A DNA stretch of 64,000 nt. Source: Desulfobacteraceae bacterium (lineage in GTDB: Bacteria; Desulfobacterota; Desulfobacteria; Desulfobacterales; ETH-SRB1). Positions 1,559 to 39,744 of the stretch are shown in pieces (positions within the stretch are counted from its first letter, which is position 1; each line of letters begins with the position of its first letter). The stretch is taken from contig JAUVHU010000002.1 of the NCBI GenBank assembly GCA_030593145.1, positions 8,238 through 72,237 on the forward strand, in the 5' to 3' direction. Below the pieces are notes generated by a model. The model was not told the origin of the DNA, searched no databases, and worked only from the letters and a program-made list of their open reading frames with translations. A program made the translations under genes and the position numbers.

Positions 1559-2635
1559 TCATTGCTTTGACGTATGGCAGACAACACAGCCGGTCATATT
1601 TGCCTTGTTATTCCAGCGCATCAGCTTGTAATTGGCTGTAGCATGAGCACCATGGCAAGAAAGGCACATGATAATATCTGTTCCTGAGGCTACAACGGCG
1701 TTTGGATCAGCAGTGTTTATTGTGCCATAGACTGTTGATCTGGCAACTGGAGCCACTATACTGTAAGTTGTGTAGGCCGTATATTCGCCAGAATTTGTTA
1801 AAACAATATCTGTCGGGTGTCTGAGCCATGGCGAAGCAGCATCACTGGTTATATCATCTAAGCCCGGCCCATGAAAGTTCCCGTGACATTCAGCACATAA
1901 ACCGCTTATAGTATTTCCGCCAGCAGTTGTCTTGTCACTTTCAGTGCCTTTGCTGGAAGCACCATAATATTCATTGTGGATGGTGGAGTCTTTATTTTGC
2001 CATGGATAGGTGGCATCCATATTTTCATGACCCTTTACGCCTTTTAAGAATCGGTAGCTGTTGGCCACTGTATCAGCAGTATCACAAAGCCCACTCACCC
2101 CATCATGATGGGCACCTTTAATACTATCGAAATTGCCCGCTGTACCGCGGTCACCATGGCAGCCTTTTGTCCCGGCACAGGTTAAGTCTGTTGTAATCCC
2201 TGTACTGTTTTCATCACCTGGAGGCCCGGAGGTTAAAACACCTTCTGCATTACCAAGAAAGTCTACATTATGACCATAGGTATCGTCGGTTGTAATATGT
2301 TTAAAATTGCCGGCTGCCAAGTCTGTGCCGCCAGTGGCGTGATAGACCTGAGGGATTTTTTGGGTGCCCAGTGTCACGTATTCCGAACCATCAGAAGCCT
2401 GACCATGACAGCCCAGACAGTTGCCACGTACCAAGCTCGAGAAAGGAGCATCACCAAACCCTCCATATGTCGCCATTGAAGCCCCACCCTGACTGTTGTG
2501 CATAGTGTGACAGTTTGAGCACATTCCTGTCACCTTCGCATGAGGAGCATTTGATGCGGCTATGATCAAAAGGATCAATATTATGCTGAAAGACAACCTT
2601 TTCAAAACAGCTCCCTTTATTCCAGTACCAGGCAA
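1559..2635 (-). CDS. Secreted multihaem c-type cytochrome with 5 canonical CXXCH motifs plus one C-X5-CH candidate
   Basis: 358-aa ORF with a signal peptide (...LLIIAASNAPHA/KV). CXXCH motifs counted by eye: CSNCH, CLGCH, CAECH, CLSCH, CVVCH, plus CAGTKGCH. Many spare His residues. The sequence between haem sites is Gly/Thr/Ser-rich. Confidence 0.85.
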   Translation of the reverse strand: MPGTGIKGAVLKRLSFSIILILLIIAASNAPHAKVTGMCSNCHTMHNSQGGASMATYGGFGDAPFSSLVRGNCLGCHGQASDGSEYVTLGTQKIPQVYHATGGTDLAAGNFKHITTDDTYGHNVDFLGNAEGVLTSGPPGDENSTGITTDLTCAGTKGCHGDRGTAGNFDSIKGAHHDGVSGLCDTADTVANSYRFLKGVKGHENMDATYPWQNKDSTIHNEYYGASSKGTESDKTTAGGNTISGLCAECHGNFHGPGLDDITSDAASPWLRHPTDIVLTNSGEYTAYTTYSIVAPVARSTVYGTINTADPNAVVASGTDIIMCLSCHGAHATANYKLMRWNNKANMTGCVVCHTSKQ

Positions 2636-2683: not shown

Positions 2684-3613
2684 TTAACGGTTACCAATTT
2701 CAAAGACACTAATGCGTGTATTGGCCCGGTCAACGATAAATATCCGGCCTGAACTGTTTATATGGATAAAAGAAGGCCGGTGCAGTCGTCCTTCTCTCCA
2801 GCCGAGTTGTGAAAAAGCATATAGAAACCGGCCTTTATTGTTGAAGACAAGAACCTTATTTTTGTGCTGATCCATTACATAGATCAGCCCTTTTCGATCC
2901 ATAGCAAGGCTTGTTGGGAAATCGAATTCATCCTTACCGGTACCTCTGGTTCCAAACTTTAAAAGAAGATTTCCCTCTCTGTTATAAACGCAAATCGAAC
3001 CATCAATGGCGCTTAGCGCATAGATACGGCCCTGTGCATCAACCTTCACATCCATGAGGCCATGGCTTCCTTTGACAGGAATTTGTCTCTCAAATTGCAA
3101 ATTTGAATCAAAGACAATAATCCGCTTATTAGCTTTATCCACAATATACAAACGATCTTCTGAATCAATAGCCATATTCCCAGGATAAAACGGATTAGCC
3201 CCGGAAACAGTAGAAAGATCGATCGGTTTGACAGATTTTTTCCCGATATCGATAGCCAGGATTTGTCCCTTTACGGGTTCGGCCACAAAAAATCTACCCC
3301 TGCTGTCTTTGACTATGCTTGTCGGTAATGTCAGAGCGCCTCCGCCGGTGAATTCCGAGATATATTTAAACTTATCATTAAAATCAAATGCAAGAATTCT
3401 GCCATTTGTTGTGTCTGTGGAATATAACCTCTTTTTGTTTTCGTCAAAAAAGAGACCGCCAAGCAGGCCAAAATGGCCTATCTCGCTATTCCCGGTGATT
3501 GATGTCAGGTATTTAACCGGTTCTTTTGACGAACAAAATGCGGTTGCAGACATAATTAAAGTCAGGATTAAAACCGGAATAGCAAAATTGATCTTTCTAT
3601 GCACAATTACCAC
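2684..3613 (-). CDS. NHL-repeat six-bladed beta-propeller protein, probable lipoprotein
   Basis: 309-aa ORF with a signal peptide ending ...MSATAF-C-SS. Six blades spaced about 45 aa apart: GRILAFD, GQILAID, KRIIVFD, GSICVYN, NKVLVFN, TRISVFE. Confidence 0.8.
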   Translation of the reverse strand: MVIVHRKINFAIPVLILTLIMSATAFCSSKEPVKYLTSITGNSEIGHFGLLGGLFFDENKKRLYSTDTTNGRILAFDFNDKFKYISEFTGGGALTLPTSIVKDSRGRFFVAEPVKGQILAIDIGKKSVKPIDLSTVSGANPFYPGNMAIDSEDRLYIVDKANKRIIVFDSNLQFERQIPVKGSHGLMDVKVDAQGRIYALSAIDGSICVYNREGNLLLKFGTRGTGKDEFDFPTSLAMDRKGLIYVMDQHKNKVLVFNNKGRFLYAFSQLGWREGRLHRPSFIHINSSGRIFIVDRANTRISVFEIGNR

Positions 3614-3643
3614 CTTACCCCGGACAAACCGGAATTGAATATA

Positions 3644-3778
3644 AAAAGTGCCTAAAGTTGATGGTCTCGTAAAAAGTCAAAAAACCACTTTTTACGAACC
3701 GTGTTAGGTGTTAAGAGTATGATTAAACAGGCAATTGCTTTAACCTAACACTTGATGAATTCGTAAAAAGTCATTCTG
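3644..3778. repeat. Composite intergenic repeat, family A copy 1 (CGTAAAAAGTC / GTGTTAGGT..CTAACAC modules)
   Basis: The reverse complement of 3701-3772 aligns to 20632-20709 at roughly 87 percent identity by hand alignment, with one 7-nt indel. AAAAGTGCCTAAAGTTG (3644-3660) is identical to 17454-17470. An internal hairpin reads cgtaaaaagt..actttttacg. Confidence 0.85.
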
Positions 3779-3930
3779 TACGTCACTCCAGCGAAAGCGG
3801 GAGTCTATAACTGATTGAATTTACCGGATTCCCGTCTTTGCGGGAATGACAAAAAATGACGCAGGGGATGACAAAAAACGGCATTTTTCAAAGGTCTTTT
3901 ACTCTCCACGCTCTAAGCTCTCTACTCTAG

Positions 3931-5187
3931 TCAGTACCCCTTATGACATTGAATACACAACTGCTTTTTTCGATCAAATCTCAAAGCAAAACTATAAGGG
4001 CTTCCCATCAGGTTATGACAGGTACTGCAGCGAATCTCCCCCTTGGACCTCGGATCAATAGTGCCTTTTCCAACAGGATGGGTGAACGTAGCATGTCTTT
4101 TGTGGCAATTAACACACGCGGAAATTTCATCAGTCCTGCACAATAGCTCAAAGTTGGATCCGTGGGGACGATGGCAGTCAGTGCATTTTCCTTTCATAAC
4201 CAAGGGGTGCTTGTATTTGTTATTTTTGTCTTTTAAGCGCTCTTTTGTATCCTGATGACAGGCAGTGCATATTTTTTTCTCTTTTGCCTTCTTCAGGTGA
4301 GGCTCATCCGAAGCATGCGGACTGTGGCAGTCGGTGCAAAAAACGCCTTCTCCCACATGGGTGTTGATCTTTCTGAAGTCCTCTTTAACCCCTGGATGGC
4401 AGGTAATGCAAATCGATATTCCCTTGTTTTTTATGCTCAGCGGATCTGTTGATCCGGCCGGCTTATGGCATTGAGTGCATTTCTTACCGGAAAACGGCTT
4501 GTGTGAGTTTTCCTTGATCAGCTTGCCGCGATTTGATCCGTGGGGATTGTGGCAGGAAATGCAATTGGTATCCTGCACAGGATAATTAAGGTGAGCTTTT
4601 TTCGCTTTTTTGTTATTAATCGAATGACATTTGACGCATATCTGTTTAGGACTCTTTTCGACCAGCTCCTCATAATCGGACGTATGGTGGCTGTGGCAAC
4701 TTAAACAATTACCTTTCTTGGCAGGATCGTGCTTGTTCTTTTTTGAAAACATCTCTTTGCCGGCATGGCAGCTAAAGCAGAGTTGTTCCCCTCTTGCCGT
4801 TAATAGTTTGGGATTTTTTGACGAATGAGGGTTATGACACTTCAGGCACGCTCCTTCTTCAAAAGGAGGATGGCTGTATTTTTTGTCAAAGCTCCCTTTT
4901 TTGCCTTTATGGCAGCTTTTGCACAACACGCTGATTTCATCTTTTATTAGATGTTCGTAATTTGAGGTATGGGGATTGTGGCAGCTTGAACATTGATATT
5001 TTTTAAAAGGCTCGTGTTTCCTCTTTTGAGCCATTTCCTGTTGAATCCCGGGATGACATTCCATGCATTTTTTAAAGCCGACATCCATGCCTTTTGCATC
5101 AGTCACAGGAGCAACCATCATGGATAACAGGAATACCACGAAAAATATCAAATAAAACAAGAATGTGTGATTTTTAACTTTAGGCAT
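3931..5187 (-). CDS. 16-haem c-type cytochrome built from doubled-CXXCH repeat units, secreted
   Basis: 418-aa ORF with signal peptide ...MMVAPVTDA/KG. I counted 16 CXXCH motifs by eye. They recur in a roughly 50-aa unit: CxxCH, about 20 aa containing H-x-P, CxxCH-x-PH-x-S, about 15 aa. Confidence 0.9.
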   Translation of the reverse strand: MPKVKNHTFLFYLIFFVVFLLSMMVAPVTDAKGMDVGFKKCMECHPGIQQEMAQKRKHEPFKKYQCSSCHNPHTSNYEHLIKDEISVLCKSCHKGKKGSFDKKYSHPPFEEGACLKCHNPHSSKNPKLLTARGEQLCFSCHAGKEMFSKKNKHDPAKKGNCLSCHSHHTSDYEELVEKSPKQICVKCHSINNKKAKKAHLNYPVQDTNCISCHNPHGSNRGKLIKENSHKPFSGKKCTQCHKPAGSTDPLSIKNKGISICITCHPGVKEDFRKINTHVGEGVFCTDCHSPHASDEPHLKKAKEKKICTACHQDTKERLKDKNNKYKHPLVMKGKCTDCHRPHGSNFELLCRTDEISACVNCHKRHATFTHPVGKGTIDPRSKGEIRCSTCHNLMGSPYSFALRFDRKKQLCIQCHKGY

Positions 5188-5205
5188 TTTAGCTCACTGT
5201 TACAA

Positions 5206-7155
5206 CTAATGACATTTTTTACAGTTGCCGTCCTTAAACAGAGGATGCATTATTTTATGTATCAAAGCTTCGTTTTCCGAGCTGTGCGTTTCATGACAGC
5301 CTATACAATTTGTGCCGGCGACAGGAATTGCGCTGTGAGCATCCATCATAGCCGGAGCATTGAGGCTGTGACAACCTTTGCAAAGGCTCGCCCCTTTACC
5401 TGCAAGTAAGTTTTCAATGTTTGCATAGTGCGGCACATGGCACTTCAAACACATCTCTTCCTTTGCCGGCGTATGCTGAAATTTATCCTTTTCAATATGA
5501 AGCGCCAGATCAGAGTGACATGACAGGCAGAGTCTCCCTGCAAGTCTGTTTAATCGTCCTTTTATTTTACTCCCGTGGGGATTATGACAGAATGTGCATT
5601 CTCCCTCTTTAATCGGCATGTGGGTGTATTTGCTTTTTTGGGAAAGAGCCTGAATGTCTCCGTGACACCCATAACAATTATCCGCTCCTATTTTAATCAA
5701 CTGAAAATCGTTGTCGCCGGCATGTTCATCGTGGCATGTAAGACATCGGCCCTTTGCAAAAGATTCATGAACACTTCCCCCCTTCACCTCATCAAGCATC
5801 CCCTTATGGCAATTAAAGCAGAGTTTGTTTTTTTTCTGGATCAAAAGCTTTTCCCTGCTTGCAGAGTGGGGGCTATGGCAGACAACACATTGTCCGATCC
5901 TGATAGGAGTGTGAACATTAACGCGATCAAAGAGTATCTTCTCTTTTTGATGGCAGCTATAACACTGCTCAACTTCGGCGCGCTGGAGTTCAAACTTGTT
6001 ATTTGATGCATGGGGTTCGTGACAAACAACACAATCTCCTTTCTTAACAGGATTGTGAACATTTGACCGCGTAAAATCGTCTCTCTTATGACACTGGTAA
6101 CAAAGCTTTTTGCCGGCCTCTTTCAATCCATAATCGTTGTTTGATGCATGGGGATTATGACAGGATGTACAATTGTTCTCTCCTGCCGGCTTATGAACAT
6201 GTTGTTTCTTAATTAACTTTTCTTTTTCTTTATGGCACGAATAGCAAAGCTTTCCATCAGGCAGAAGCGTTGCATATTTGTTGTCAGTGGCATGTGGACT
6301 GTGGCATGACAGGCAATTTCCATCCTGAACCGGTGAATGGATATGAGCTTTCTTAAAATCCGCCTTGTCTTTTGCATGGCAACCATAGCAAAGCTTTGCG
6401 CCCTTCTCCCTCGGTTCTAAAGCCTGCGCCGATTCAGGTGGGTTATGGCATGCGCTGCACTCCTTTTTGTCAAGGGGTTTATGAATAAATTCGCGCAGCA
6501 ACTTGGGGTTTGAAGAGGAATGTGATGTATGACACGACACACAATTGCTATTGTTCACCTTATAGCCCGAGTGGCTTTTGACAAACCCGGAACCTTTGAA
6601 ATTATGACATTTGGCACATACATCGTTCGTCGTGTTAAATAGCTGTTGTTCATAATCAGAACCATGGGCATCATGACATGTCAGGCAACCCTTGTCGGAT
6701 AATGGCTCATGTTGTGTTTTTCTTGTATAAGAGTCTTTTGAATGGCAAACAAAACAAAGATTATTTCCCTTGCCTTTTAACAGGTTTTTATTTTCGGACG
6801 AATGTGGATTGTGACAACTTATACAGTTTTTTTCTTTTACAGGAGCATGAACATGCTTTTTGTCAAGCACGCTTTTCATCTCTTTATGACAGATGTAACA
6901 CAGCTCCTTTTCGCTCACCTTTAAGTAAACGCCCCCGATCATCCCGTGGGGTCTGTGACACGATTCACACTCGTTGCTTTTTACAGGCTTATGGACAATC
7001 CCTGCCTTCTTAAACTCATCAACCTTTTTTTGATGGCACTCAACGCATTTTTTTCTTACAATCTGCCCTGGCGCTTTTCTCTTGCAGGAAACAATCCCCA
7101 CGATGATAATTGCAATCAATAACAGCAATATAGTAGCTGGTTTTATAAATTTCAT
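5206..7155 (-). CDS. 26-haem c-type cytochrome, probable lipoprotein, same doubled-CXXCH repeat architecture
   Basis: 649-aa ORF. The N-terminus MKFIKPATILLLLIAIIIVGIVS-C-KRK has a lipobox-like IVSC. I counted 26 CXXCH motifs by eye, making 13 repeat units. It lies 18 bp upstream of the 16-haem gene and 3 bp downstream of the SurA-like gene. Confidence 0.9.
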   Translation of the reverse strand: MKFIKPATILLLLIAIIIVGIVSCKRKAPGQIVRKKCVECHQKKVDEFKKAGIVHKPVKSNECESCHRPHGMIGGVYLKVSEKELCYICHKEMKSVLDKKHVHAPVKEKNCISCHNPHSSENKNLLKGKGNNLCFVCHSKDSYTRKTQHEPLSDKGCLTCHDAHGSDYEQQLFNTTNDVCAKCHNFKGSGFVKSHSGYKVNNSNCVSCHTSHSSSNPKLLREFIHKPLDKKECSACHNPPESAQALEPREKGAKLCYGCHAKDKADFKKAHIHSPVQDGNCLSCHSPHATDNKYATLLPDGKLCYSCHKEKEKLIKKQHVHKPAGENNCTSCHNPHASNNDYGLKEAGKKLCYQCHKRDDFTRSNVHNPVKKGDCVVCHEPHASNNKFELQRAEVEQCYSCHQKEKILFDRVNVHTPIRIGQCVVCHSPHSASREKLLIQKKNKLCFNCHKGMLDEVKGGSVHESFAKGRCLTCHDEHAGDNDFQLIKIGADNCYGCHGDIQALSQKSKYTHMPIKEGECTFCHNPHGSKIKGRLNRLAGRLCLSCHSDLALHIEKDKFQHTPAKEEMCLKCHVPHYANIENLLAGKGASLCKGCHSLNAPAMMDAHSAIPVAGTNCIGCHETHSSENEALIHKIMHPLFKDGNCKKCH

Positions 7156-7158
7156 GGC

Positions 7159-8577
7159 TTAATTGTTCCGGTATTTTTCTTCTATCTGTCGCAAAACTTT
7201 TTTGTTAATCTTTATTCTGGAACTTTTACGCAATTTTGCCAAATACTTGGAAAGCACTTTGTTGAAGTTGTTTTGGCCCACGATTTTTTTTAATGTATTG
7301 ACAAGACTGGAGAACTCTATGGGTTCCCCTCCTCTTTTGCCCTTTAATTTAATGATCTTGTATTGTCTGCCATCAGCGATTACCCCGCTGATCTCACCTG
7401 GTTTCAGCCGGTTTAATTCCTTCCTGATTGCAGGAGAAAAGAAATCAGCATTAACCCATACAATCTTTTGCCTTGGCTTCCATTTTTCCGACACCCGAGA
7501 TCCCAAAAACTCAAAACTCGCGCCATACTTTAATTCTTTAAGGGCTTTCTCAGCATCTTTACGAACATTAAAGATCATCTCCCTGAACCAGACTTCATAA
7601 CTTTTCTTGAAATTATTTATATGTTTTTCATAATATTGTGTCAACTCATTTTCTGTTGGAATTGATAGGGGATAGATTAGCTTTGCCTTAAATTCATTGA
7701 TAAGAAGCCGATCTTTACGTTTTTTAACCATATCCATAAATGCAGGCTCGTTGACATAATTTCGCTTTAACGCCTCCTGGTCGATCAATTTGAATAAAAT
7801 CAGTTTGTCTAAAATTTTCTCTTTTAACTCTGGTTGCATTTTTTCCGGATATCCATTGTTTTTCAACAAAAGAGATGTCCCTGGCTGATATTGAGCTGCA
7901 TATTTCATATCATGAAGAAAACTATCGAGGGAAATCATATCACCATTTACGCCCGCCACCACCAACTTTTTTCCTGAGTAATTCTTTCCAGGGTCAAGCA
8001 GGTTAATCAGGTCCTGATCAATCCATATATCCGCCTGTTTTCTTAGCTCGGAAATAAAGTTGTCAGACAGTTCTTTCTCTTTTTTCTTCTTGAGGTTTTT
8101 TCTGATTCGCGCTTCTACCTTTTTAAACATTCCTTCAGAAGCCGGTTCATCTTTCTCATAGTGCTCTTTGAAATAGTCCAAAACATCTTGATCGCTGATG
8201 TTGATTTTATCAAAGACTACTTCTTTTCTTAATCTGATGACAGACCGAGTAATCACGAAAGATTCAATCTTTTTTGTAAAATCAGCAGACCTGTCAAGTT
8301 CCACCCTGTACGCGTCCTGAATCATGAGCCGCTCATCAATCATCTCTTCAACAATATTCAGAATCTCTATGCCGCCCGCGCCTTCTTCAGACCGAATTTG
8401 CAGCTTATTCCTGTGAATAGCCTTAATCCTCTCCTGAAGAGCGCCTTCATCAACAATGTCACCATTGATTTCCGCGAGAACGGTTGTATCCGCAGCCGCA
8501 GAATAGGGTGTATATATATTTGCGGCTGCAAGCCAAAAAAGTGTCATCAAAGTAAATACTGATAATTTTCTCATCAT
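7159..8577 (-). CDS. Periplasmic SurA-like chaperone / PpiC-type (parvulin) peptidyl-prolyl isomerase domain protein
   Basis: 472-aa ORF with signal peptide ...YTPYSAAA/DT. The N-terminus is SurA-like (VLAEINGDIVDEGALQERI). The C-terminal region is parvulin-like (EVWFREMIFNVRKDAEKALKELKYGASFEFLG...GEISGVI...YKIIKL). The usual catalytic His context looks degenerate. Confidence 0.7.
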   Translation of the reverse strand: MMRKLSVFTLMTLFWLAAANIYTPYSAAADTTVLAEINGDIVDEGALQERIKAIHRNKLQIRSEEGAGGIEILNIVEEMIDERLMIQDAYRVELDRSADFTKKIESFVITRSVIRLRKEVVFDKINISDQDVLDYFKEHYEKDEPASEGMFKKVEARIRKNLKKKKEKELSDNFISELRKQADIWIDQDLINLLDPGKNYSGKKLVVAGVNGDMISLDSFLHDMKYAAQYQPGTSLLLKNNGYPEKMQPELKEKILDKLILFKLIDQEALKRNYVNEPAFMDMVKKRKDRLLINEFKAKLIYPLSIPTENELTQYYEKHINNFKKSYEVWFREMIFNVRKDAEKALKELKYGASFEFLGSRVSEKWKPRQKIVWVNADFFSPAIRKELNRLKPGEISGVIADGRQYKIIKLKGKRGGEPIEFSSLVNTLKKIVGQNNFNKVLSKYLAKLRKSSRIKINKKVLRQIEEKYRNN

Positions 8578-8602: not shown

Positions 8603-9223
8603 TTAGGGTATCGTCTCAATCATCTCCAAAACCATTTTCCTGGTCAATTCGCCCACCGACCTGACCTTGCCGAAATCAAGAACCTTTATGTAGTCGTCAC
8701 CGGTTCTTCTGTATTGCGCCATCCACAAAATCTTTCCTGTTCGGGCGTCCACCATCCTCGAACTGATGGAAACCACGGGAATAACGCTCCTTTTCTTTTT
8801 CTCTATCCCTATAAATTCTTCTACCCGACCTATAATAACGGCATCCACTCCCAATCTTTTTCCCGCAAGCTTGATAGTATTGAGATCAATGCCGGTTCTC
8901 ACGATAATTCGCTCGCTAACAAGAAAACTCTTGATGTTACCTGAAAATTCCACCTTAAATTTTCTCGTTTTAATCAGGTTTGCGATAAATGCCCCTGTTA
9001 CAATTTTGCTTGCTCCGGTAATTTTTGTATTGTTGTAAAAAGACAAAACCGCAACCTTTTTGACTGCCGGCTGATCATGGTTTTTTCTGACATAGGTGTA
9101 CGGAGTACCGGATGAAGAACAACCGGAAATGAATCCCAAAATAACAAGCAAAAAAATAAACCTTCTTGTCCGCTCAGCCTTTGAGACCTTTGCAATGTGA
9201 AAACCAATTTTTTGCGAGTCCAT
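8603..9223 (-). CDS. Lipoprotein with CsgG/LpoB/TolB-N-like alpha/beta domain (paralogue 1 of 3)
   Basis: ORF 8603..9271. I prefer the ATG at 9223, which is 4 nt after the upstream stop. Lipobox LGFISG-C-SSS. Motifs KKVAVLSFYNNT, AGKRLGVDAVIIGRVEEF and ARTGKILW...RRTGDD are shared with the next two genes. Confidence 0.6.
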   Translation of the reverse strand: MDSQKIGFHIAKVSKAERTRRFIFLLVILGFISGCSSSGTPYTYVRKNHDQPAVKKVAVLSFYNNTKITGASKIVTGAFIANLIKTRKFKVEFSGNIKSFLVSERIIVRTGIDLNTIKLAGKRLGVDAVIIGRVEEFIGIEKKKRSVIPVVSISSRMVDARTGKILWMAQYRRTGDDYIKVLDFGKVRSVGELTRKMVLEMIETIP

Positions 9224-9227
9224 CAAC

Positions 9228-10754
9228 TCAAAAATCCTCAACCCATTCATGCTTTTTTTTCTCAGGCTCAATCTCAGTTACTTCGAGTTCAAGTGGTTTT
9301 AAGGGTTGTTTTTCTATTTGCAGCCTGTTTCCCGCTATATCTCTTATTTCAAGTGAATAGACAAACATATTCGCTTTTTCCGGGCTCAGGTCTTTTTTTG
9401 TTTTTTTTATTGGGCAGACAATGGTTGCCGGAATATTCCCTTTGCCCTCAAACCTTCCTGCTTCAGTGCCTGTTCTGTCGTAAACAATAACTTCCCAATC
9501 GGCTATTTCGCTTATATCTTTGATTTCCAGCGACAGGGTAAGGCTTTCTTCATTTTCCCCGGCAAGAACAACGAAAGTCTCAGGCGGAGTTTTGTCAACA
9601 ATGATCTTCTCCTTTACTGTAGATGTCCTGTTGCCCGCCTTATCTTCCACAAACAATCTACAGAAATATGTTCCATCTTTAACAGTTTTGTATTTATTAT
9701 TATCACCCTTCCAGATAAAACCTGCGGGCAGCACGCCAAAACCGTCTTCAGACCTCACAATGTTGCCGGCTTTATCTGTAATCTCAACCTGCCAGCTTTC
9801 TAACGTGACTGCTTTCAGAAGTTCAGGAAAGAATTGAATATAGTCATTTATGCCGTCATTATTAGGAGATACAAGCCTGTGCGGAAACGAAAGAGCGATT
9901 TCCGGCCAGCTGTTGTGAACAGTCAGACTGGCTGCGGAGTCCATACTAAAAAGCCTGTCCAATTGGTCCAATACGTAAATCTTCAGCGGATAGACTCCAT
10001 CAATGGCAGGAGCTGAAATAGTTCCGGCATACCATATTCCATCCTCGGTTTTAAGATCAATCTCACTATCAAGAACAAATGCCTTGATATCAAGCAACCT
10101 TCCGGTGATCTCTTTAACCTCTATTAAGAGACGTGTTGTCTCACCGCCTCTTAACACATCAGGAAAAAAACCTGCGTGTGTGATCTCAATAGGAGTTACG
10201 GATGAGCCGGCTGAATTGACAATAGAGGGCAAGTTGCTTAAGAGTTCCTCCACCGTGATGCCTACCAACTTCTTCAAAGAAGTTATCCTGCCCAGGCCGA
10301 GAAATGTGGCAAAGTCGTCCCCTGTGCGTGAAATAGAGTTAGCCCAAACAACAGAACCATCAAAACAATTTATCATCTGGGCATTTATGGCTACCTGTGG
10401 ATTTTCACCATCTTCAAAGAGATCAACTGATCCGAGCAGCAGGACATCCGTCTCTAAAACAGCTCCCATTTCTCTGATAACCGATCTGTCTAAGAATTCC
10501 GTTCCGCGGATTCTTCTTTTGGCAAGGAAATTTTCCAGGATATCCTGAGAAACAACCTTGAATTCATTCTTTATGAGAGAATCCGATATAAGACTCGTTA
10601 CATTAATGGAAATATCTCCGGCGGTAAATATGCCAAAAGGTATCACTGCTGTTCTCTTTATTGTTACCACATCCTCCGCCCACAAAATGCGGCCTGACAA
10701 CCCTGAAAGCAAAAAGGCTAAAATAACTGATAGGATAAATAAATATTTTTTCAC
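9228..10754 (-). CDS. Secreted protein: CsgG/LpoB-like N-domain (paralogue 2) plus FlgD-Ig-like / Ig-like domains
   Basis: 508-aa ORF with a signal peptide. The N-domain carries RTAVIPFGIF...VLETDVLLLGSVDLF...GSVVW...SRTGDD. The middle has SPNNDGINDYIQF...WQVEITDKAGNIV...DGTYFCRLFVEDKAGN, a FlgD-Ig-type signature. Confidence 0.6.
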   Translation of the reverse strand: MKKYLFILSVILAFLLSGLSGRILWAEDVVTIKRTAVIPFGIFTAGDISINVTSLISDSLIKNEFKVVSQDILENFLAKRRIRGTEFLDRSVIREMGAVLETDVLLLGSVDLFEDGENPQVAINAQMINCFDGSVVWANSISRTGDDFATFLGLGRITSLKKLVGITVEELLSNLPSIVNSAGSSVTPIEITHAGFFPDVLRGGETTRLLIEVKEITGRLLDIKAFVLDSEIDLKTEDGIWYAGTISAPAIDGVYPLKIYVLDQLDRLFSMDSAASLTVHNSWPEIALSFPHRLVSPNNDGINDYIQFFPELLKAVTLESWQVEITDKAGNIVRSEDGFGVLPAGFIWKGDNNKYKTVKDGTYFCRLFVEDKAGNRTSTVKEKIIVDKTPPETFVVLAGENEESLTLSLEIKDISEIADWEVIVYDRTGTEAGRFEGKGNIPATIVCPIKKTKKDLSPEKANMFVYSLEIRDIAGNRLQIEKQPLKPLELEVTEIEPEKKKHEWVEDF

Positions 10755-10770
10755 TCAATCAACAATCCCT

Positions 10771-11367
10771 CTATCCCCCAAACAAGGTATCAAACATCTC
10801 TTCAATCAACTCCCTGCAAAGATCGCTGGAGCTCTTTTTGCCGATGCCGAAGAGCCGATCCAGAATGGTTGCTCCCTTTACGTTGTGTGTCGCTTCCCAG
10901 AGGATCTTATAAGATTTTACATCTATCAGCTTTAAAGTAATGGAGACTTCCGGATAAGCGCTGCTCCCTGCACGCGATACACCATATTCTTCAACCGCTC
11001 CTACAATAAAGGCCTGGACGTTCAGCCGTTTTCCGGCCCTTTCAGCAATACTTTTGCTGATGACACCTTCTTTTTTCTTAGCCCCTTCTTCCCTCAATAC
11101 CTTATCCACCTCTCCGAATTCAACAACATCAAATACACCCCGCCTTAACACCTCAGCAGCCACGACATTCATTACCTTGCCTTCCGCTTCATTTTCCTTA
11201 GTCAGGTTTTTTAGAGGCACAATAGCTACTGTCTTAATATATGTAAGATCTGCCGTAGGGTGGATATAACTCATAGGACCAGCGCAACTGTAAAATAGCG
11301 ACAATACCGCAAGTAAAAATACGGTTTGCTTGATACAACTTATATTATTCATCTGTTTTCCATTCAT
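10771..11367 (-). CDS. Probable lipoprotein with CsgG/LpoB-like domain (paralogue 3)
   Basis: 198-aa ORF with signal ...AVLSLFYS-C-AGP. Motifs: IKTVAIVPLKNLT, AGKRLNVQAFIVGAVEEY, SYKILW. It aligns clearly with 8603..9223. Confidence 0.6.
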   Translation of the reverse strand: MNGKQMNNISCIKQTVFLLAVLSLFYSCAGPMSYIHPTADLTYIKTVAIVPLKNLTKENEAEGKVMNVVAAEVLRRGVFDVVEFGEVDKVLREEGAKKKEGVISKSIAERAGKRLNVQAFIVGAVEEYGVSRAGSSAYPEVSITLKLIDVKSYKILWEATHNVKGATILDRLFGIGKKSSSDLCRELIEEMFDTLFGG

Positions 11368-11444: not shown

Positions 11445-13583
11445 TTAAAACCTTGCTGAAAGATTCGTGGTAAAAGTCTGTGTTTTCGTTATCGGATCTG
11501 CCTCCTGGCAGGTCCAATTATAACCGAATCTTAAGGTAAAAATCCGGCTCAAATTCCAGTAAAGGTCAGAAGAATAAGTTGAGCTGATAGTACCATTTCT
11601 GTTCAAGATATACCCCATGTCAAGCCGCATCTTTTCGGTCATCAACCAGTTCATGTTATACTGCTGCTGAGTGGTTTCCTCTCCTGTCTGCTCATCCCTG
11701 TCAATGCCGTAAGACGCTCTGAAGTAAAAATAATGAGACGGCCGCCAGTTAAATATAGTCTTGGCATTGGAAGTTTGACCAGTTGTACCACCGCTTGAAT
11801 TTTGTGTTTCTGTCCAATTTCTACCATATTCAATTTCAGCTGTCAACATTCTGGTAAGCTCCAGACGTAGATTTGAGTTAATAGACTTAGTGGTTGTCTC
11901 GGATTGACTGACAGGATTTTCCAAACGGGTGATATTTACATCCACATCCAGATCCGCCCCTTCACGAAGCTTTGCCGCCACCTGAAACAGAGCGGATGAG
12001 TTCTTTGAGTGGGTTTCGCCGTCTTCTTTTGATACCGTATAATTCAACAAAAGGTCGGTGTTAAGGGCTTTGAGGGGAGATGAAAGAAAGTGCAGCAGAT
12101 AAGTATCGGTTGTCTTATCCTTTGTCTCTGTCTCAGAATCATATTTATACTCCTGGCGTCTGCGATACTCCGGCCGGATTTTGAGATACTTATGAGCTTT
12201 AAACTCTTTTCCAATGCGACCGGATATATCATGGCTTGACCGCTTGGTTTTGGTTGAGTCGGCACCCGTCTCCTCACTCTCCTGCTCGTCCTGCGTAAAA
12301 TCATACGTAAAAGAGAGCCAATCCGTGGGCTTATATCTAAGATTGGCCTGGGTTGTTTGGGTTGTTTGTTCGGTATCAGTGGTGGTAAAGGCGGCCTGGG
12401 TCGTAGATCCGTAGGCCTCGATCTCTGTGACAAAGAGATCATTATCATCATTATCATCATTGACTACCTTAAAATATGTGGCCGGTGGTGCGGTAAACGA
12501 GATCTCAAACCGCTTCTGATTTGTGTCATAGTCGAAACTGGCTCCAGAGGTTATCAGCGTCCATGTAGCGTTATCAGTACTTGAATACACATCCCATACA
12601 AAGTTGTTCTTGTCGAAGTTGATGTTGGGTGATTCCGTATAAAGATATATTTTGTCAATTTCAGTGGAAAAAGTGAGGTCCAGCCCAATGTTCTGGTTGG
12701 TGTTTCCACTTCCTCCAATGTTGATCTCCGTGGGCGTGGTAACGCGCGTCGCTTTGTTGCCATCCTTGAGAGCATCATAAGTATCATCAAGAGTTCCTGA
12801 CAGTGGGGCAGAATCATGAGCATAAAGTCCGGTATACACTGTCTTTTTTTCGGCAACCTCGACATCCTGCCCCCCTGTTGTGGTTTCCGTCTTTCTGTTT
12901 GTGATCGAATAGGTTCCCGAAGTTACAATCTTGTTTTTCCAGAACGACTTTCTGAAATCGACTCTTCCTTCATTGGTATTGGTCTCCGTTGTGGATTCTG
13001 TAACATAATTATCCGAAACATTGTTTTTATAATCGTAGTTAAAATTCAAAAAACGGAAGGCATAATCAGCACTTCCGGAAAAATTAGTGGTTTTGGTATT
13101 TGTCTCGCGTACTGCCAGGTGGTCATAGTTCATGTCTTCGTTGTAACGGAGTCGCACTTTGGGATATTTTTCGGACTTTGTGGATAAATTGACGTTCCAC
13201 GATTCGGTCGTCAAGCGATCTTCGTCTGAAACCATGGTCAGGATATCGAGACCTTTTTCAGTAATCCGATAGCCTGTATCAGCAGAAAAATATTCATTTC
13301 TTAGATTAAGCCTTATATCCGGAGTCAACCGCGTTGTTTTAGTATCGTTTGTCTCGTTTACATTAATTCCAAGATTAGCGGCAAAGTTGACTTTAGGAGT
13401 AAATTCCTTGGTCGCCCGAATATTATAGTTCTGCGTAAAACCCCAGGAATTTTTTTCTTCTTCACCGGTCTTTGTTTTGGTCGAACAATAAGTAAGGTTG
13501 GCCGAACCACTGATATCATCTCCGGCGTAGACTCCCCGGAAGCAGATCAGAGTCAGCAAAAAAATAGCAATCCAATATTTCAT
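11445..13583 (-). CDS. Large outer-membrane beta-barrel protein with an inserted discoidin (F5/8 type C)-like module
   Basis: 712-aa ORF with signal peptide ...FRGVYA/GDD. Long runs alternate polar and aromatic residues, are rich in T/N/Y, and show strand-like periodicity. The C-terminus ...TTNLSARF ends in Phe, which is OMP beta-signal-like. Residues about 255-392 (NNFVWDVYSSTDNATWTLI...YFKVVN...FVTEIEAYG) resemble a galactose-binding/discoidin fold. Confidence 0.65.
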   Translation of the reverse strand: MKYWIAIFLLTLICFRGVYAGDDISGSANLTYCSTKTKTGEEEKNSWGFTQNYNIRATKEFTPKVNFAANLGINVNETNDTKTTRLTPDIRLNLRNEYFSADTGYRITEKGLDILTMVSDEDRLTTESWNVNLSTKSEKYPKVRLRYNEDMNYDHLAVRETNTKTTNFSGSADYAFRFLNFNYDYKNNVSDNYVTESTTETNTNEGRVDFRKSFWKNKIVTSGTYSITNRKTETTTGGQDVEVAEKKTVYTGLYAHDSAPLSGTLDDTYDALKDGNKATRVTTPTEINIGGSGNTNQNIGLDLTFSTEIDKIYLYTESPNINFDKNNFVWDVYSSTDNATWTLITSGASFDYDTNQKRFEISFTAPPATYFKVVNDDNDDNDLFVTEIEAYGSTTQAAFTTTDTEQTTQTTQANLRYKPTDWLSFTYDFTQDEQESEETGADSTKTKRSSHDISGRIGKEFKAHKYLKIRPEYRRRQEYKYDSETETKDKTTDTYLLHFLSSPLKALNTDLLLNYTVSKEDGETHSKNSSALFQVAAKLREGADLDVDVNITRLENPVSQSETTTKSINSNLRLELTRMLTAEIEYGRNWTETQNSSGGTTGQTSNAKTIFNWRPSHYFYFRASYGIDRDEQTGEETTQQQYNMNWLMTEKMRLDMGYILNRNGTISSTYSSDLYWNLSRIFTLRFGYNWTCQEADPITKTQTFTTNLSARF

Positions 13584-13768: not shown

Positions 13769-15211
13769 TCACTCCTCAATCATCGCAATCCCATGCGGCC
13801 CTCTCCCTACCTGAATGGCCGTTTTCAGTCGTCTTGTTGTAAGATCAATAACAGATAGATCCTCTGACAGGGTATTAACCACGTAAAGTTTTCTTCTCAA
13901 CGACTCGACAACCATCTGTGAAGGAAGGTCCCCAACCGATATGTTTCCGGTAGTCATATCCATAGAGGTATATATGAAGGAAACTTCATTGCCGGTGTTA
14001 GACACGTAAATCCGGCCTGACAAGCCAGACACAAGCCACATGGGCTTTTGACTCAGAAGTATCGTTTTTGTAACCGAATAAGACGGGATGTCTATCACAG
14101 AAATACTGTTTGAACCTACATTAATCACATATAGCTTATCCTGGTGAATGGCCATGCCGGTGGGATTAAAACCGACTGTTACAGTATCTTCCACAGCACT
14201 GGTATTCACGTCGATGATCGATACGGAATTTGACGCTTTGTTTGCCACATAGACCTTGCGTCTGTATTGATCGAACACAATGCCGGCAGGATTCTTCCCC
14301 ACAGATATAAAATCGGTTGCCGTATTTGAAAGAGTATCTATCACGGAGATATTGTCTGAATCCGGGTTGGTTGCGTAAAGTGTCAAGCCATCCCCGGACA
14401 AGGCGAGTTCAGCAGGACTATATCCAAAATTGGCGATTGTGTTGATTACCCTGTTTAAATCGGTATCGATAACCGAAATATTGCCGGTGTCGAAATTGGC
14501 TACATATATCTTATCCCCATCCGGGCTTACCACAATTCCCATAGGCGATTGATCTACCGCAATAGTTGCTACCACCCTATCCTGCTGCCTGTCTATAACG
14601 GTAACGCAATTAGAGCCCATATTCGTAACATAGAGTAAAATATTTTTAATCTCTATACTCTGTTTCCGCATGATCATCTTTGGCCTGAAAAGATATTTAT
14701 CAAAAACAGACTCTTCCGGATTCCAGTCCGCAAAAAAAGCAAAACTCTCCCCGGAAAATACAGAAAACTCCATATCAAAAAAATGGTTTCCCCCGGGCTG
14801 GGGAAGAACCAGGCTGAAGATTTTTCCATACTTTTCCAGTTTTGCCTCAGAAATTGTCCACCTTATCCGTTCATACTTTCCGGCAGGCAGATGAAGCTCA
14901 CACAATTTGATCTGACTCTGAGCGAACCCGAAAGAATGAATGCACTTATCCACCGCCACATCGATCCACTTTCCCTCCTTGTTCATAAAGCTCATGCCGG
15001 AGATAGAAAAGGAGATATCAAATGTAGGTTTTTGTGAACAGGAAAGATAGAAGAAGACCTGGCCCTTATTGGTTAATTGGAGCTCCTTGGAGGTAGGTTC
15101 AAAAATACATGCTGCAATAGAAACTAAGGCCAGCACAACTATTATCAAACGAAAAACCAGGAATTTTGCCGCAATTCTTTTCCTCATGATGTCCTCATTT
15201 CTTTTTTTCAA
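13769..15211 (-). CDS. Lipoprotein with N-terminal beta-sandwich-like domain and YVTN-family beta-propeller repeats
   Basis: 480-aa ORF with lipobox LVSIAA-C-I. Repeats: YVANFDTGNISVID, LYATNPDSDNISVID, VYVANKASNSVSIID, LYVINVGSNSISVID, LYVVNTLSEDLSVID. The start at 15211 overlaps the upstream gene by 17 nt; an alternative ATG is at 15187. Confidence 0.8.
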   Translation of the reverse strand: MKKRNEDIMRKRIAAKFLVFRLIIVVLALVSIAACIFEPTSKELQLTNKGQVFFYLSCSQKPTFDISFSISGMSFMNKEGKWIDVAVDKCIHSFGFAQSQIKLCELHLPAGKYERIRWTISEAKLEKYGKIFSLVLPQPGGNHFFDMEFSVFSGESFAFFADWNPEESVFDKYLFRPKMIMRKQSIEIKNILLYVTNMGSNCVTVIDRQQDRVVATIAVDQSPMGIVVSPDGDKIYVANFDTGNISVIDTDLNRVINTIANFGYSPAELALSGDGLTLYATNPDSDNISVIDTLSNTATDFISVGKNPAGIVFDQYRRKVYVANKASNSVSIIDVNTSAVEDTVTVGFNPTGMAIHQDKLYVINVGSNSISVIDIPSYSVTKTILLSQKPMWLVSGLSGRIYVSNTGNEVSFIYTSMDMTTGNISVGDLPSQMVVESLRRKLYVVNTLSEDLSVIDLTTRRLKTAIQVGRGPHGIAMIEE

Positions 15212-16598
15212 ACATGACTTTTCCGCGATAGATTCCGCATAACCAGCCTGTGCGCCCGGATCCTGTTTTTACAAAATACCATGAAGTTAATTCATCGTGT
15301 TTGTCCTGGCTCAGGATTTCAAACTCTTCGCCTTTTTTCATCAACCGAATGATCCTGCTGCTTGTAGCGCTTTTTTCCCGCAGGTTCATGTTTGCAGTCA
15401 AGATATAATGCTGTGCGGTCACTCGCTCTGATAGTTCTTTTCCGGCGGGAGCTTCCGGCTTTATCTCTTTGACTAATTCTTTTGTGATGATATCTTTTGG
15501 TTTAACTTTTTCAGCCACTGCAACAGACCGAATCACTTCTATTTTAAAGACCTGTATCCTGTTGTTAAAAGTGTCTGCGATCAGCACATTTCCAGAGTCG
15601 TCCGCGGTGATATCGCTTGGATGCTGAAACCAACCTCTGCCCCAGCCTTTGCCGCCAAAATCAAACAAAAAACGTCCGTCTTCTGAATAGGCGTTTGCGG
15701 TATGCCGCATGTAGTCGATTACATAAATCACTTTGTTGTGCTTATCTATAGTCATTCCTCTTGGCCGGCTCAACTTGCTGGATCCCCCGCCTTTCTGGCC
15801 GAACTTAAACAGGAAATTTTCCTTGTCATCATATACGTAAATACGGCCCATGTCTTCACTCAAAAGGTATATCCTGCCGGAGCTGTCTATCTCCACATCG
15901 CATATCGTGGCTTTTTGTTCTTCACCTTTTCCCAGTCTGTCAACAGGACTCATGAGATGGCAAAACGTTCCATCCTCATTCAAAATCACCACGCCATGAA
16001 AGCTGACGCCGGCCACATAGAATTTGCCCGCCTTGCTGATGGCAATATTTGTTGGGTGAAAACTATCCGCGTTTTCAAATCCCTCAAAAAAAAAATTCTT
16101 GCTCCACCTTAATGAAGGATCCAATACCGTTATTCTTGCTCCCTTCTCTTTTAAGCCGGATGACTGAGCAACAAAAAGATGCCCCTCAGGATCAACCGCC
16201 ACGCCTGCAGGAGTTTTGATGCCGTTTGATTTTCCAACACTAAGAAGCGGGTAAAAATCATAAGTATATACCAATATTCTGCTGTGTCCGGAATCCGTAA
16301 TATAGATCTCCTTTTTTACAGAATCGAAGAATAATTTGGATGGATAAGACAGTTTCAGACCATTATAGTCCTCCCTGATAATATAAAGGCAGGTAATCTT
16401 TTTCAGCTTGATTTGATCAGCATAGATAGCCGAATCGGTTTGCTTCGGTAAATCAGTTGACTCGGATTCATGCTGGATGTCGATCTGTTGCCCGGCGACA
16501 GAGCATTGAACAAAGGGCCATAGGCCAGACAAAGAGATGCATATTGCGATAATAATACAAAAACCGACTATCTCTTTTGTGCTGCTGTTACAGGACAT
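15195..16598 (-). CDS. NHL-repeat beta-propeller protein with C-terminal bacterial SH3 domain
   Basis: 467-aa ORF with a hydrophobic N-terminal signal or anchor. NHL blades: HSRILVYTY, GRIYVYDDK, NNRIQVFKI and others. The C-terminus NLREKSATSSRIIRLMKKGEEFEILSQ...WYFVKTGSGRTGWLCGIY is SH3b-like. This is the first gene of the cluster. Confidence 0.8.
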   Translation of the reverse strand: MSCNSSTKEIVGFCIIIAICISLSGLWPFVQCSVAGQQIDIQHESESTDLPKQTDSAIYADQIKLKKITCLYIIREDYNGLKLSYPSKLFFDSVKKEIYITDSGHSRILVYTYDFYPLLSVGKSNGIKTPAGVAVDPEGHLFVAQSSGLKEKGARITVLDPSLRWSKNFFFEGFENADSFHPTNIAISKAGKFYVAGVSFHGVVILNEDGTFCHLMSPVDRLGKGEEQKATICDVEIDSSGRIYLLSEDMGRIYVYDDKENFLFKFGQKGGGSSKLSRPRGMTIDKHNKVIYVIDYMRHTANAYSEDGRFLFDFGGKGWGRGWFQHPSDITADDSGNVLIADTFNNRIQVFKIEVIRSVAVAEKVKPKDIITKELVKEIKPEAPAGKELSERVTAQHYILTANMNLREKSATSSRIIRLMKKGEEFEILSQDKHDELTSWYFVKTGSGRTGWLCGIYRGKVMFEKKK

Positions 16599-25113: not shown

Positions 25114-25189
25114 TCCCCAGTAGCTCAGTTGGCAGAGCAAGTGGCTGTTAACCACTAGGTCCGCGGTTCGAGTCCGTGCTGGGGAGCCA
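25114..25189 (+). tRNA. tRNA-Asn (anticodon GTT), CCA encoded
   Basis: Cloverleaf folded by eye. The acceptor tccccag pairs with ctgggga. D-arm agctcagttggcagagc. Anticodon loop ct-GTT-aa. T-arm ggttcgagtcc. Discriminator g followed by cca. Confidence 0.95.
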
Positions 25190-39302: not shown

Positions 39303-39359
39303 ATTAAGAATGGTTGTGCACCCACTATCGAATCTTTTCCTTAGAACATATAAGCCATA

Positions 39360-39470
39360 AAATTGATCGGAATCAATCCACGACACAGACCGCATCACTT
39401 ATCGCTGCTTCCTCCCGGACCTGACGAGGTTCATGACCGTCTGTTGCGCGGCGGCCGATCGGAATGACTT
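39360..39470 (-). ncRNA. ffs: Signal recognition particle RNA (small 4.5S type)
   Basis: The minus strand reads ...gatcggccgccgcgcaacagacggtcatgaacctcGTCAGGTCCGGGAGGAAGCAGCgataagtgatgcggtctgtgtcgtggattgattccgatc. The capitalised block (39404-39425) matches the conserved domain IV of E. coli 4.5S RNA (GUCAGGUCCGGAAGGAAGCAGC, recalled from memory) and has a GGGA tetraloop. The 5' gatcgg and acagac pair with the 3' ccgatc and gtctgt. The ends are approximate. Confidence 0.7.
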
Positions 39471-39744
39471 AATGCTTTCAGGATTAAAAACCCTTTAGAG
39501 GGAATTCAGCCCCGCATAAAGCGGATTTCGGGTAAAAGGGCACCGCTAACTCCCCACCTAGCACAACCGTTTTTATAATATAATTCTTCAAATCAATTTA
39601 TCAAGCAAAAAACTTCACATTCTGCCAATAGAATTGGCTCCTTTATATATTCCACAATATAGGCTGTTGTTTCTATCCCAAGACGCAACATTTAGTGTTT
39701 TTTATTGACATATAAACATCTCTATCATAATTTGCATAAAAAAA

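Follow-up and report, generated by a model that had tools for sequence, protein, structure and literature searches.

Adjoining 26-haem and 16-haem cytochrome genes of a Desulfobacteraceae bacterium: an apparent split form of a 42-haem gene, very probably part of a published multihaem operon

The DNA analysed here, referred to below as the window, is a stretch of 64,000 nt from a Desulfobacteraceae bacterium (assembly GCA_030593145.1, contig JAUVHU010000002.1, positions 8,238-72,237, forward strand). Eleven genes running in the same direction on the minus strand, separated by short intergenic gaps, occupy approximately 1.5-16.6 kb of the window. The eighth and ninth of these encode two multihaem cytochromes, designated protein A (the 26-haem cytochrome) and protein B (the 16-haem cytochrome), which are the subject of this work; the OmcS-like hexahaem cytochrome encoded in the same cluster is designated protein C. 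The pair very probably belongs to a multihaem operon described in 2017, and sequence comparison presents it as the split form of a 42-haem gene. The two genes are as follows.

5206-7155, minus strand: protein A, a 649-amino-acid (aa) lipoprotein with 26 CxxCH motifs in 13 Paired_CXXCH_1 units, assigned from its open reading frame (ORF) and profile matches
3931-5187, minus strand: protein B, a 418-aa secreted cytochrome with 16 CxxCH motifs in 8 Paired_CXXCH_1 units, assigned from its ORF and profile matches

A first-pass annotation of this DNA had reported the two ORFs, the 26 and 16 CxxCH motifs, the 13 and 8 units and the 18-bp gap between the genes, which lie on the same strand, and all of these were reproduced by ORF, motif and profile counts. 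Variant CxxxCH or CxxxxCH motifs were absent from both proteins. Residue-shuffled controls contained a mean of 0.38 CxxCH motifs for A (maximum 4) and 0.20 for B (maximum 2), so the motif counts are far beyond chance. The Paired_CXXCH_1 profile (PF09699, cut-off 20.6) matched A with 455.8 bits over 13 stretches and B with 271.4 bits over 8 stretches, and TIGR01905 (cut-off 25.2) returned the same unit counts, with 437.3 bits for A and 255.6 bits for B. The spacing between motifs alternates between 23 and approximately 25 residues, corresponding to 25.0 (A) and 26.1 (B) aa per haem over the full-length proteins. This alternation is broken at three points, following haems 8 and 25 in A and haem 8 in B, by 28-residue spacings containing an extra H-x-P. 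The earlier description of the pair as about 21 copies of one two-haem unit thus holds with respect to iteration, with the reservation that the copies are imperfect and the alternation breaks; periodic homology was also found, with the Pfam unit lying in a different register from the unit boundaries first proposed.

Both export signals named in the first-pass annotation are seen in the sequences, a lipobox (I-V-S-C, with the lipobox Cys at residue 24, Cys24) on the larger protein and a cleavable Sec signal peptide of typical form (...VAPVTDA, followed by KG after the cleavage site) on the smaller. Mature A was computed to contain 626 aa, with a mass of 69.9 kDa without haem and approximately 86 kDa with haem, and mature B to contain approximately 387 aa, with masses of 43.7 kDa and approximately 54 kDa, respectively. 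In the mature proteins there are roughly 24 aa per haem. The last residues of A are C-K-K-C-H followed by the stop codon, so that the chain ends on the histidine of haem 26, and mature B begins approximately 9 residues ahead of its first haem motif. The two proteins are paralogous, with 36% identity over approximately 400 aa, and colinear for haems 4-10.

In an alignment of 38 26-haem proteins, the 26 CxxCH motifs and exactly 26 further His residues are invariant. The presence of one conserved distal His per haem indicates that the haems of A are bis-His, low-spin and of the electron-transfer kind, and that none offers an open catalytic site. Across the 16-haem family and the corresponding region of 42-haem fused proteins, the 16 motifs and 14 further His residues are invariant. 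After haem 15, in the sequence C-S-T-C-H-N-L-M, B contains Met394 (window 4006-4008, minus strand) at a position occupied by His in most relatives (His 28, Met 8, Lys 2, Cys 2 and Asn 1 among the 16-haem proteins). Because the ligand following haem 15 varies and only 14 of the 16 expected distal His residues are invariant, one or two of the C-terminal haems may differ in ligation and potential.

An AlphaFold model of A, built with the 38-sequence alignment, had a mean pLDDT of 88.7 and a pTM of 0.68. A Foldseek search with this model against solved structures gave 6r2q_A as the sole significant match (E = 1.7e-7, probability 1.00, 303 columns), and the same chain was the best sequence match of A. 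We take 6r2q chain A to be MtrA, the decahaem wire of Shewanella; the molecule name given for the chain by the sequence-search tool differs. The fold of A is thus predicted to be MtrA-like. The wire-like role suggested in the first-pass annotation fits with the conserved haem motifs, the single distal His per haem in A and the MtrA-like model, and A and B are likely to be electron-transfer haem wires. MtrA spans roughly 8 nm with 10 haems, or approximately 0.8 nm per haem. Scaled from this length, A would measure approximately 20 nm, and A plus B approximately 30 nm or more, if the chain is straight.

Members of the MtrA/DmsE family (TIGR03508; 6r2q_A) resemble A and B in the Paired_CXXCH block, bis-His ligation and extended haem-wire fold. 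They differ in having 10 haems instead of 26 and 16, and MtrA is not a lipoprotein and sits inside the MtrB/PioB barrel. Assignment of A to the decahaem family was considered and rejected, because its TIGR03508 score of 267.5 (cut-off 192.2) was reached only through 5 partial stretches, the best of which covered positions 67-229 of the 258-position model. On the basis of the model, A may work like MtrA while standing outside the decahaem family.

The occurrence of the pair was examined by a species-representative genome scan and a search of a large protein collection, both with A, and by an exhaustive HMMER search with B. The genome scan returned seven loci (L001-L007) encoding proteins 74-82% identical to A, all in metagenome-assembled genomes (MAGs) of Desulfobacterales/Thermodesulfobacteriota. 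All seven carry the 26-haem and 16-haem pair, with the same flanking genes wherever the locus was long enough. The next relatives of A in the protein collection are 30-37% identical. Among the 172 homologs found there, 63 contain 26 CxxCH motifs (approximately 650-700 aa) and 80 contain exactly 42 (approximately 1,065 aa). The search with B yielded 555 cluster representatives at E <= 1e-30; among the matches listed, 43 of 129 new representatives have 16 CxxCH motifs, and 41 of these are stand-alone proteins of 370-460 aa, with a spacing pattern nearly identical to that of B. The first-pass annotation had placed 42 haems at the extreme end, which cannot be maintained, since 80 of the 172 homologs have this number in one polypeptide and relatives reach 52, 82 and 131. 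These giant relatives are built from the same two-haem unit (P0319, 3,592 aa with 131 CxxCH; P0401, 2,281 aa with 82; P0295, 1,629 aa with 52).

The 42-haem class (P0001-P0069 and others) is found in Zixibacteria, Krumholzibacteria, Gemmatimonadota, Latescibacterota and the FCB group, mostly with ordinary signal peptides, and nothing relevant to it was found as a published description in the searchable literature. Protein A aligned best to haems 1-26 of these proteins, and B to haems 27-42 in most of them. Spacings of 28-30 residues occur at matching ordinals in the split and fused classes, after haems 8, 25 and 34, and the spacing from haem 26 to haem 27 in the fused proteins has a median of 22 residues, with only about 17 residues lying between the two. 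Fused and split forms thus resemble each other in being colinear, A then B, with the same spacing irregularities, and in the NHL propeller, hexahaem and LpoB-like genes downstream. The fused form differs in being one polypeptide of approximately 1,065 aa, in most cases carrying an ordinary signal peptide and no lipobox, and in that the 10 kb to each side of the gene contain no detectable peptidyl-prolyl isomerase (PPIase) gene at the two loci examined. From these sequence comparisons, A plus B is the split form of the 42-haem gene.

The gene neighbourhoods of six distant relatives (L009-L014) were examined. A 26-haem gene is directly followed by a 16-haem gene in a Desulfuromonas MAG (L009), a Desulfuromonadales MAG (L014), an ENA metagenome contig (L012) and an Acidobacteria MAG (L010). 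Three of these loci (L009, L012 and L014) contain positional orthologs of all 11 cluster genes, following the gene order of the window nearly gene for gene. The other two neighbourhoods, in a Zixibacteria MAG (L011, GCA_040756055) and in L013, contain a single 42-haem gene, after which come genes for NHL propellers, hexahaem cytochromes and LpoB-like proteins; these are the two loci where the PPIase gene was not detected.

Since the fused proteins join the equivalents of A and B in that order, the usual reasoning from gene fusions predicts that the C terminus of A touches the N terminus of B, which would restore a continuous 42-haem chain. We regard end-to-end docking of the two proteins, with a role as a periplasmic relay, as a possibility falling just short of an even balance. 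A more specific proposal takes the conserved total of 42 haems as a length specification, with A and B forming a rigid head-to-tail chain of approximately 30 nm, a fixed periplasm-spanning cable leading into OmcS-type filament machinery; we consider this doubtful. A length of approximately 30 nm matches the distance from inner to outer membrane. If such a fixed 42-haem cable were present, electrons on that route would have no need of soluble shuttles such as PpcA or TpIc3.

Desulfobacterales, Desulfuromonadales and Acidobacteria share the 26/16 counts, the irregular spacings and the order of the genes, and this conservation of architecture shows that the duplications predate the spread of the operon. 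When two-haem windows of A and B were compared with distant orthologs, the best match fell at the same ordinal in 17/40, 11/40 and 10/40 cases, against approximately 1/40 expected by chance. DNA self-comparison of A and B gave only matches of 20-53 nt with 60-80% identity, located on motif codons, and Tandem Repeats Finder detected no tandem DNA repeat in the array. Judged from the sequences, the array is ancient and fixed, and not expanded in situ.

The first-pass annotation had instead suggested duplication and expansion of a repeat module, which can be taken to mean local duplication and recent expansion with an incidental number of haems. Consistent with such a history, A and B are paralogs with the identity and colinearity given above, and units within the window often score against each other as well as, or better than, against units at the same position in distant orthologs. 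The family is saturated at approximately 35% identity, so that unit similarity cannot date the duplications. The predominance of 26, 16 and 42 haems (63 and 80 of the 172 homologs, and 43 of the 129 further representatives among the matches listed), the position-by-position retention of the irregular spacings, the invariance of the haem motifs and of nearly all distal His residues, the same-ordinal best matches and the absence of tandem DNA repeats all speak against recent growth, which we consider highly implausible. What stands of the earlier reading is an old duplication behind the A/B paralogy; local or recent growth does not.

The remaining nine genes of the cluster, from its first gene to its last, are listed below.

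15195-16598, minus strand: NHL-repeat beta-propeller protein with a C-terminal SH3 domain, 467 aa, the first gene of the cluster
13769-15211, minus strand: YVTN/YncE-type beta-propeller protein, 480 aa, from profile matches
11445-13583, minus strand: secreted protein of 712 aa ending in ...SARF, with no Pfam or PDB match
10771-11367, minus strand: LpoB/GNA1162-like lipoprotein, 198 aa, from a profile match, kept across the cluster loci
9228-10754, minus strand: secreted protein with immunoglobulin-like (Ig-like)/FlgD-Ig domains, 508 aa, from a profile match, kept across the cluster loci
8603-9271, minus strand: second LpoB-like lipoprotein, approximately 200-222 aa, from a profile match, start codon uncertain
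7159-8577, minus strand: SurA/PpiC-type PPIase (Rotamase_2/SurA_N), 3 bp upstream of A, in an OscH-like position
2684-3613, minus strand: NHL/DUF5128 six-bladed beta-propeller protein, from a profile match
1559-2635, minus strand: protein C, an OmcS-like hexahaem cytochrome of 358 aa with five CxxCH motifs and one C-x5-CH motif, from a family profile compared with OmcS

This gene content was compared with that of the operon described by Skennerton et al. (2017, mBio, PMC5539420) in SEEP-SRB1a/1c, Desulfobacteraceae that live as partners of methane-oxidising archaea (ANME); in that operon a 26-haem cytochrome lies beside a 16-haem cytochrome unrelated to HmcA. The four-gene core of that operon consists of a six-bladed beta-propeller, the two cytochromes and a peptidyl-prolyl isomerase; all of its proteins have signal peptides, and extra small cytochromes and propellers lie around it. 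Homologs were reported in Desulfuromonadales, Geobacter, Anaeromyxobacter, 'Ca. Desulfofervidus' and Desulfurivibrio, those of Geobacter being placed in the phylogeny of the four core proteins, together with evidence of horizontal transfer and the detection of operon peptides in seep sediments (PMC5539420). The window likewise contains adjoining proteins with 26 and 16 CxxCH motifs, a Rotamase_2/SurA_N protein (7159-8577) and a six-bladed propeller (2684-3613). Both systems occur in Desulfobacterales, and the genomes nearest to the window are Desulfobacterales MAGs with the same operon at 74-82% identity. The 16-haem protein of the window is also not HmcA, a candidate that was rejected because B scored 36.4 bits against NF045713 (cut-off 400) and is built of Paired_CXXCH units.

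By gene content and haem counts, the window pair is very probably this published operon, with no essential difference between the two. The novelty implied in the first-pass annotation is accordingly lost, the operon having been published in 2017. The present analysis adds the conserved lipobox, a constant OmcS-like hexahaem neighbour and the fused form outside Deltaproteobacteria. The points not found in the literature examined are the fission/fusion relationship of 26 + 16 = 42 with its docking prediction, the conserved lipobox, the variable terminal ligand and the constant OmcS-like neighbour outside Geobacter.

Some further features of the locus were observed. The ORFs of the Ig-like protein (9228-10754) and the second LpoB-like lipoprotein (8603-9271) have a 44-nt overlap in the ORF list; the latter probably begins further downstream, because the proteins of relatives are approximately 200 aa long. 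The gap between B and the NHL propeller gene is 317 nt (window 3614-3930), with no annotated feature in this interval, and the GTG start of the NHL gene is uncertain. The same junction measures 12-17 nt in L002 and L004, approximately 60-160 nt in L003, L005 and L007, and approximately 1 kb in L001. In L004, L005 and L007 a gene for an extra 5-haem cytochrome (approximately 410 aa) and one for a protein of approximately 191-201 aa lie between the second LpoB-like gene and the PPIase gene. Neither the window nor L001 or L006 has this gene pair, so that even near relatives differ in the accessory genes of the cluster. An ORF of more than 500 aa leaves the left edge of the window (1 to approximately 1520, minus strand); it encodes a signal peptide, an Ig-like N-terminal region and propeller-like repeats ending in NHL-like motifs, has no haem sites and may be a further member of the cluster. 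The other 47 kb of the window contain housekeeping genes (M16 peptidase, HisRS, AspRS, pyruvate carboxylase, DnaK, signal recognition particle (SRP) RNA and tRNA-Asn). The bacterial large SRP RNA (39314-39566, minus strand, 136.5 bits) and the tRNA-Asn(GTT) (25114-25189, plus strand) are ordinary and unrelated to the cytochrome pair, and no further multihaem cytochromes were found outside the cluster in the 64-kb window.

The 712-aa secreted protein holds the same position in all split-type loci. It had no Pfam match better than E 0.05, no PDB match and no likeness to MtrB/PioB, and is probably an outer-membrane beta-barrel. Its presence raises the possibility of an MtrAB-type porin-cytochrome conduit, in which one end of A or B threads this putative barrel, delivering electrons through the outer membrane to the OmcS-like cytochrome. 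The MtrA-like fold and sequence of A would fit such an arrangement, as would the occurrence in the same operon, at all split-type loci, of a secreted protein of MtrB size (approximately 700 aa) ending in Phe. An MtrB/PioB homolog is, however, absent near the pair, and the 712-aa neighbour matches neither this family nor any other in Pfam or the PDB. Homologs of the porins of known porin-cytochrome systems were also not found in SEEP-SRB1 (PMC5539420), and in Geobacter the proteins OscE/F/G are proposed to secrete OmcS and not to house a cytochrome (Shen 2025, as cited in PMC13194489). Approximately 10 haems suffice to cross a membrane, so that membrane crossing alone does not explain 42. We consider the conduit rather unlikely as an explanation of the pair, and it is disfavoured by the evidence; insertion of one chain end into a porin could nevertheless occur alongside the relay described below.

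The cluster also resembles the omcS-companion (osc) genes of Geobacter. GSU2495 has 26 haem motifs and a mass of approximately 70 kDa (PMC2996986, PMC12977616), and GSU2495 and GSU2494 are named oscI and oscJ, of the omcS-companion operon, in PMC13194489, with GSU2494 corresponding to PccJ. The block of eight genes GSU2500-GSU2493 always accompanies an OmcS-like hexahaem cytochrome and has been connected with the maturation and secretion of OmcS nanowires (PMC12977616). The roles proposed with respect to OmcS nanowires are folding for OscH, secretion for OscE/F/G and shaping for OscD (Shen et al. 2025, as cited in PMC13194489). PccJ, a periplasmic protein, is up-regulated on Fe(III) oxide (PMC9248073), and in G. 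soli grown on ferrihydrite, pccJ and the adjacent cytochrome gene were up-regulated approximately 30-fold, together with omcS/omcT (PMC6013743). In both systems a 26-haem periplasmic cytochrome of approximately 70 kDa (69.9 kDa for mature A) is encoded beside a second periplasmic multihaem cytochrome, and the genes around them encode a PPIase, lipoproteins, a putative channel-like protein, beta-propellers and OmcS-like hexahaems. Genes fitting OscD/E/F/G by type and position only (the 712-aa putative barrel, the LpoB-like lipoproteins, the Ig-like protein and the YVTN propeller) are present in the window and also in the Desulfuromonadales MAG loci. The two systems differ in that the OmcS-type genes lie upstream of the block in Geobacter, while in the window the OmcS-like gene is at the downstream end, and in that the window has a second LpoB-like gene.

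The proximity of the PPIase gene, 3 bp ahead of A, and its constant linkage in split-type loci and in the core set of PMC5539420 would suit another function, in which the pair helps in biogenesis by keeping OmcS-like subunits or haems reduced or correctly ligated, together with the PPIase and outside the respiratory path. The connection of GSU2500-GSU2493 with OmcS nanowire maturation and secretion points the same way (PMC12977616). The roles proposed for the osc products in PMC13194489 are, however, assigned to OscD, E, F, G and H, and not to I or J, the presumed counterparts of the pair. The fused-form loci L011 and L013 have no detectable PPIase gene within 10 kb on either side of the 42-haem gene. 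No chaperone is known to need 42 haems. A biogenesis helper is thus disfavoured, and we judge it quite improbable.

The relation of protein C to OmcS was detected only with a family profile, which matched OmcS (6ef8_A) with E = 5.5e-18 (profile positions 30-335, chain residues 8-351); a PDB search with C as a single sequence gave no match. Protein C shares with OmcS the N-terminal motif C-x-x-C-H-T-M-H-N-S. Its family has five invariant CxxCH motifs and an invariant C-x5-CH (C153...C159-H160), which replaces one canonical CxxCH of OmcS. There are approximately 1,960 detectable members, almost all unnamed. The AlphaFold model of C was poor (pLDDT 41.4) and was not used.

Two other known systems were compared. 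The c7-type polymers of Geobacter, with 12 or 27 haems (GSU1996 family; PMC2996986), are likewise long periplasmic haem 'nanowires' made by iteration of a small module, but the module is a trihaem cytochrome c7 domain unrelated to the two-haem Paired_CXXCH unit. The DFE_448-451 and DFE_461-465 clusters of the sulfate reducer Desulfovibrio ferrophilus IS5 combine periplasmic multihaem cytochromes, NHL propellers and extracellular cytochromes, and are proposed to take up extracellular electrons (PMC5815863). They were rejected as the same system, since their cytochromes have 12 and 14 haems and a 26/16 pair was not reported (PMC5815863).

We propose the following mechanism for the pair. Proteins A and B would leave the cytoplasm through Sec and receive their haems in the periplasm, each forming an MtrA-like, peptide-minimised chain of close-packed and almost entirely bis-His haems that acts as a conduit and not as an enzyme. 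Protein A would be tethered by its N-terminal lipid, probably to the inner face of the outer membrane, and B would be soluble. Haem 26 of A would dock on the first haem of B to give a single chain of 42 haems, which would relay or buffer electrons across the periplasm. The ends of the chain would meet redox complexes of the inner membrane on one side, and the outer-membrane machinery and the OmcS-like hexahaem of the cluster on the other, with the pair serving an OmcS-type filament system. In a sulfate-reducing host, electron flow would likely be inward.

Several observations weigh against this proposal. The superposition of A on 6r2q_A is loose (root-mean-square deviation 16.6 Å, TM score 0.45 on the target), and the lengths given above are estimates scaled from MtrA on the supposition of a straight chain. 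The lipobox is kept in 10/10 Desulfobacterota orthologs checked (the seven close relatives L001-L007, and L009, L012 and L014), yet it is missing from the Acidobacteria ortholog and most fused forms, so that lipid anchoring is not essential to the family; in addition, the operon proteins were thought not to be attached to either membrane in PMC5539420. Lipidation of A and the membrane concerned are suggested by the lipobox sequence, and docking of A and B by the Rosetta-stone argument only. A and B are provisionally matched to GSU2495 and GSU2494 by their haem counts and size, by the order of the genes and by the published phylogeny; searches with A or with its Desulfuromonas homolog yielded no Geobacter-labelled protein. 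A GSU2494 mutant was indistinguishable from wild type in the account of Aklujkar 2013 cited in PMC9248073. The role of A and B in the electron path is one that we infer.

Some of these observations would also suit a periplasmic electron store, or capacitor, in which 42 low-potential haems buffer an intermittent donor or acceptor without a fixed bridge between membranes. The haem density is very high (approximately 24 aa per haem), there is no obvious catalytic site, the lipid anchor is dispensable in some lineages, and knockout of GSU2494 is cited in PMC9248073 as giving no growth phenotype. A pure store would, however, need neither the exact, phylum-spanning 26 + 16 = 42 and the conserved irregular spacings nor the constant linkage to outer-membrane and filament genes. 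Storage and relay are compatible with each other, and storage without a relay is disfavoured and appears unlikely to us. The combination of the published operon, haem wires, docking and a periplasmic relay is the best explanation as a whole, and one that we favour slightly.

The window pair thus adds increments to a known and widely distributed module, whose classification is unchanged. Of the products of the cluster, the two large cytochromes are understood least. Operons of this type may let extracellular electrons enter or leave the cell, both in metal reducers and in the sulfate reducers that partner methane-oxidising archaea; processes of this kind control the release of methane from sediments.

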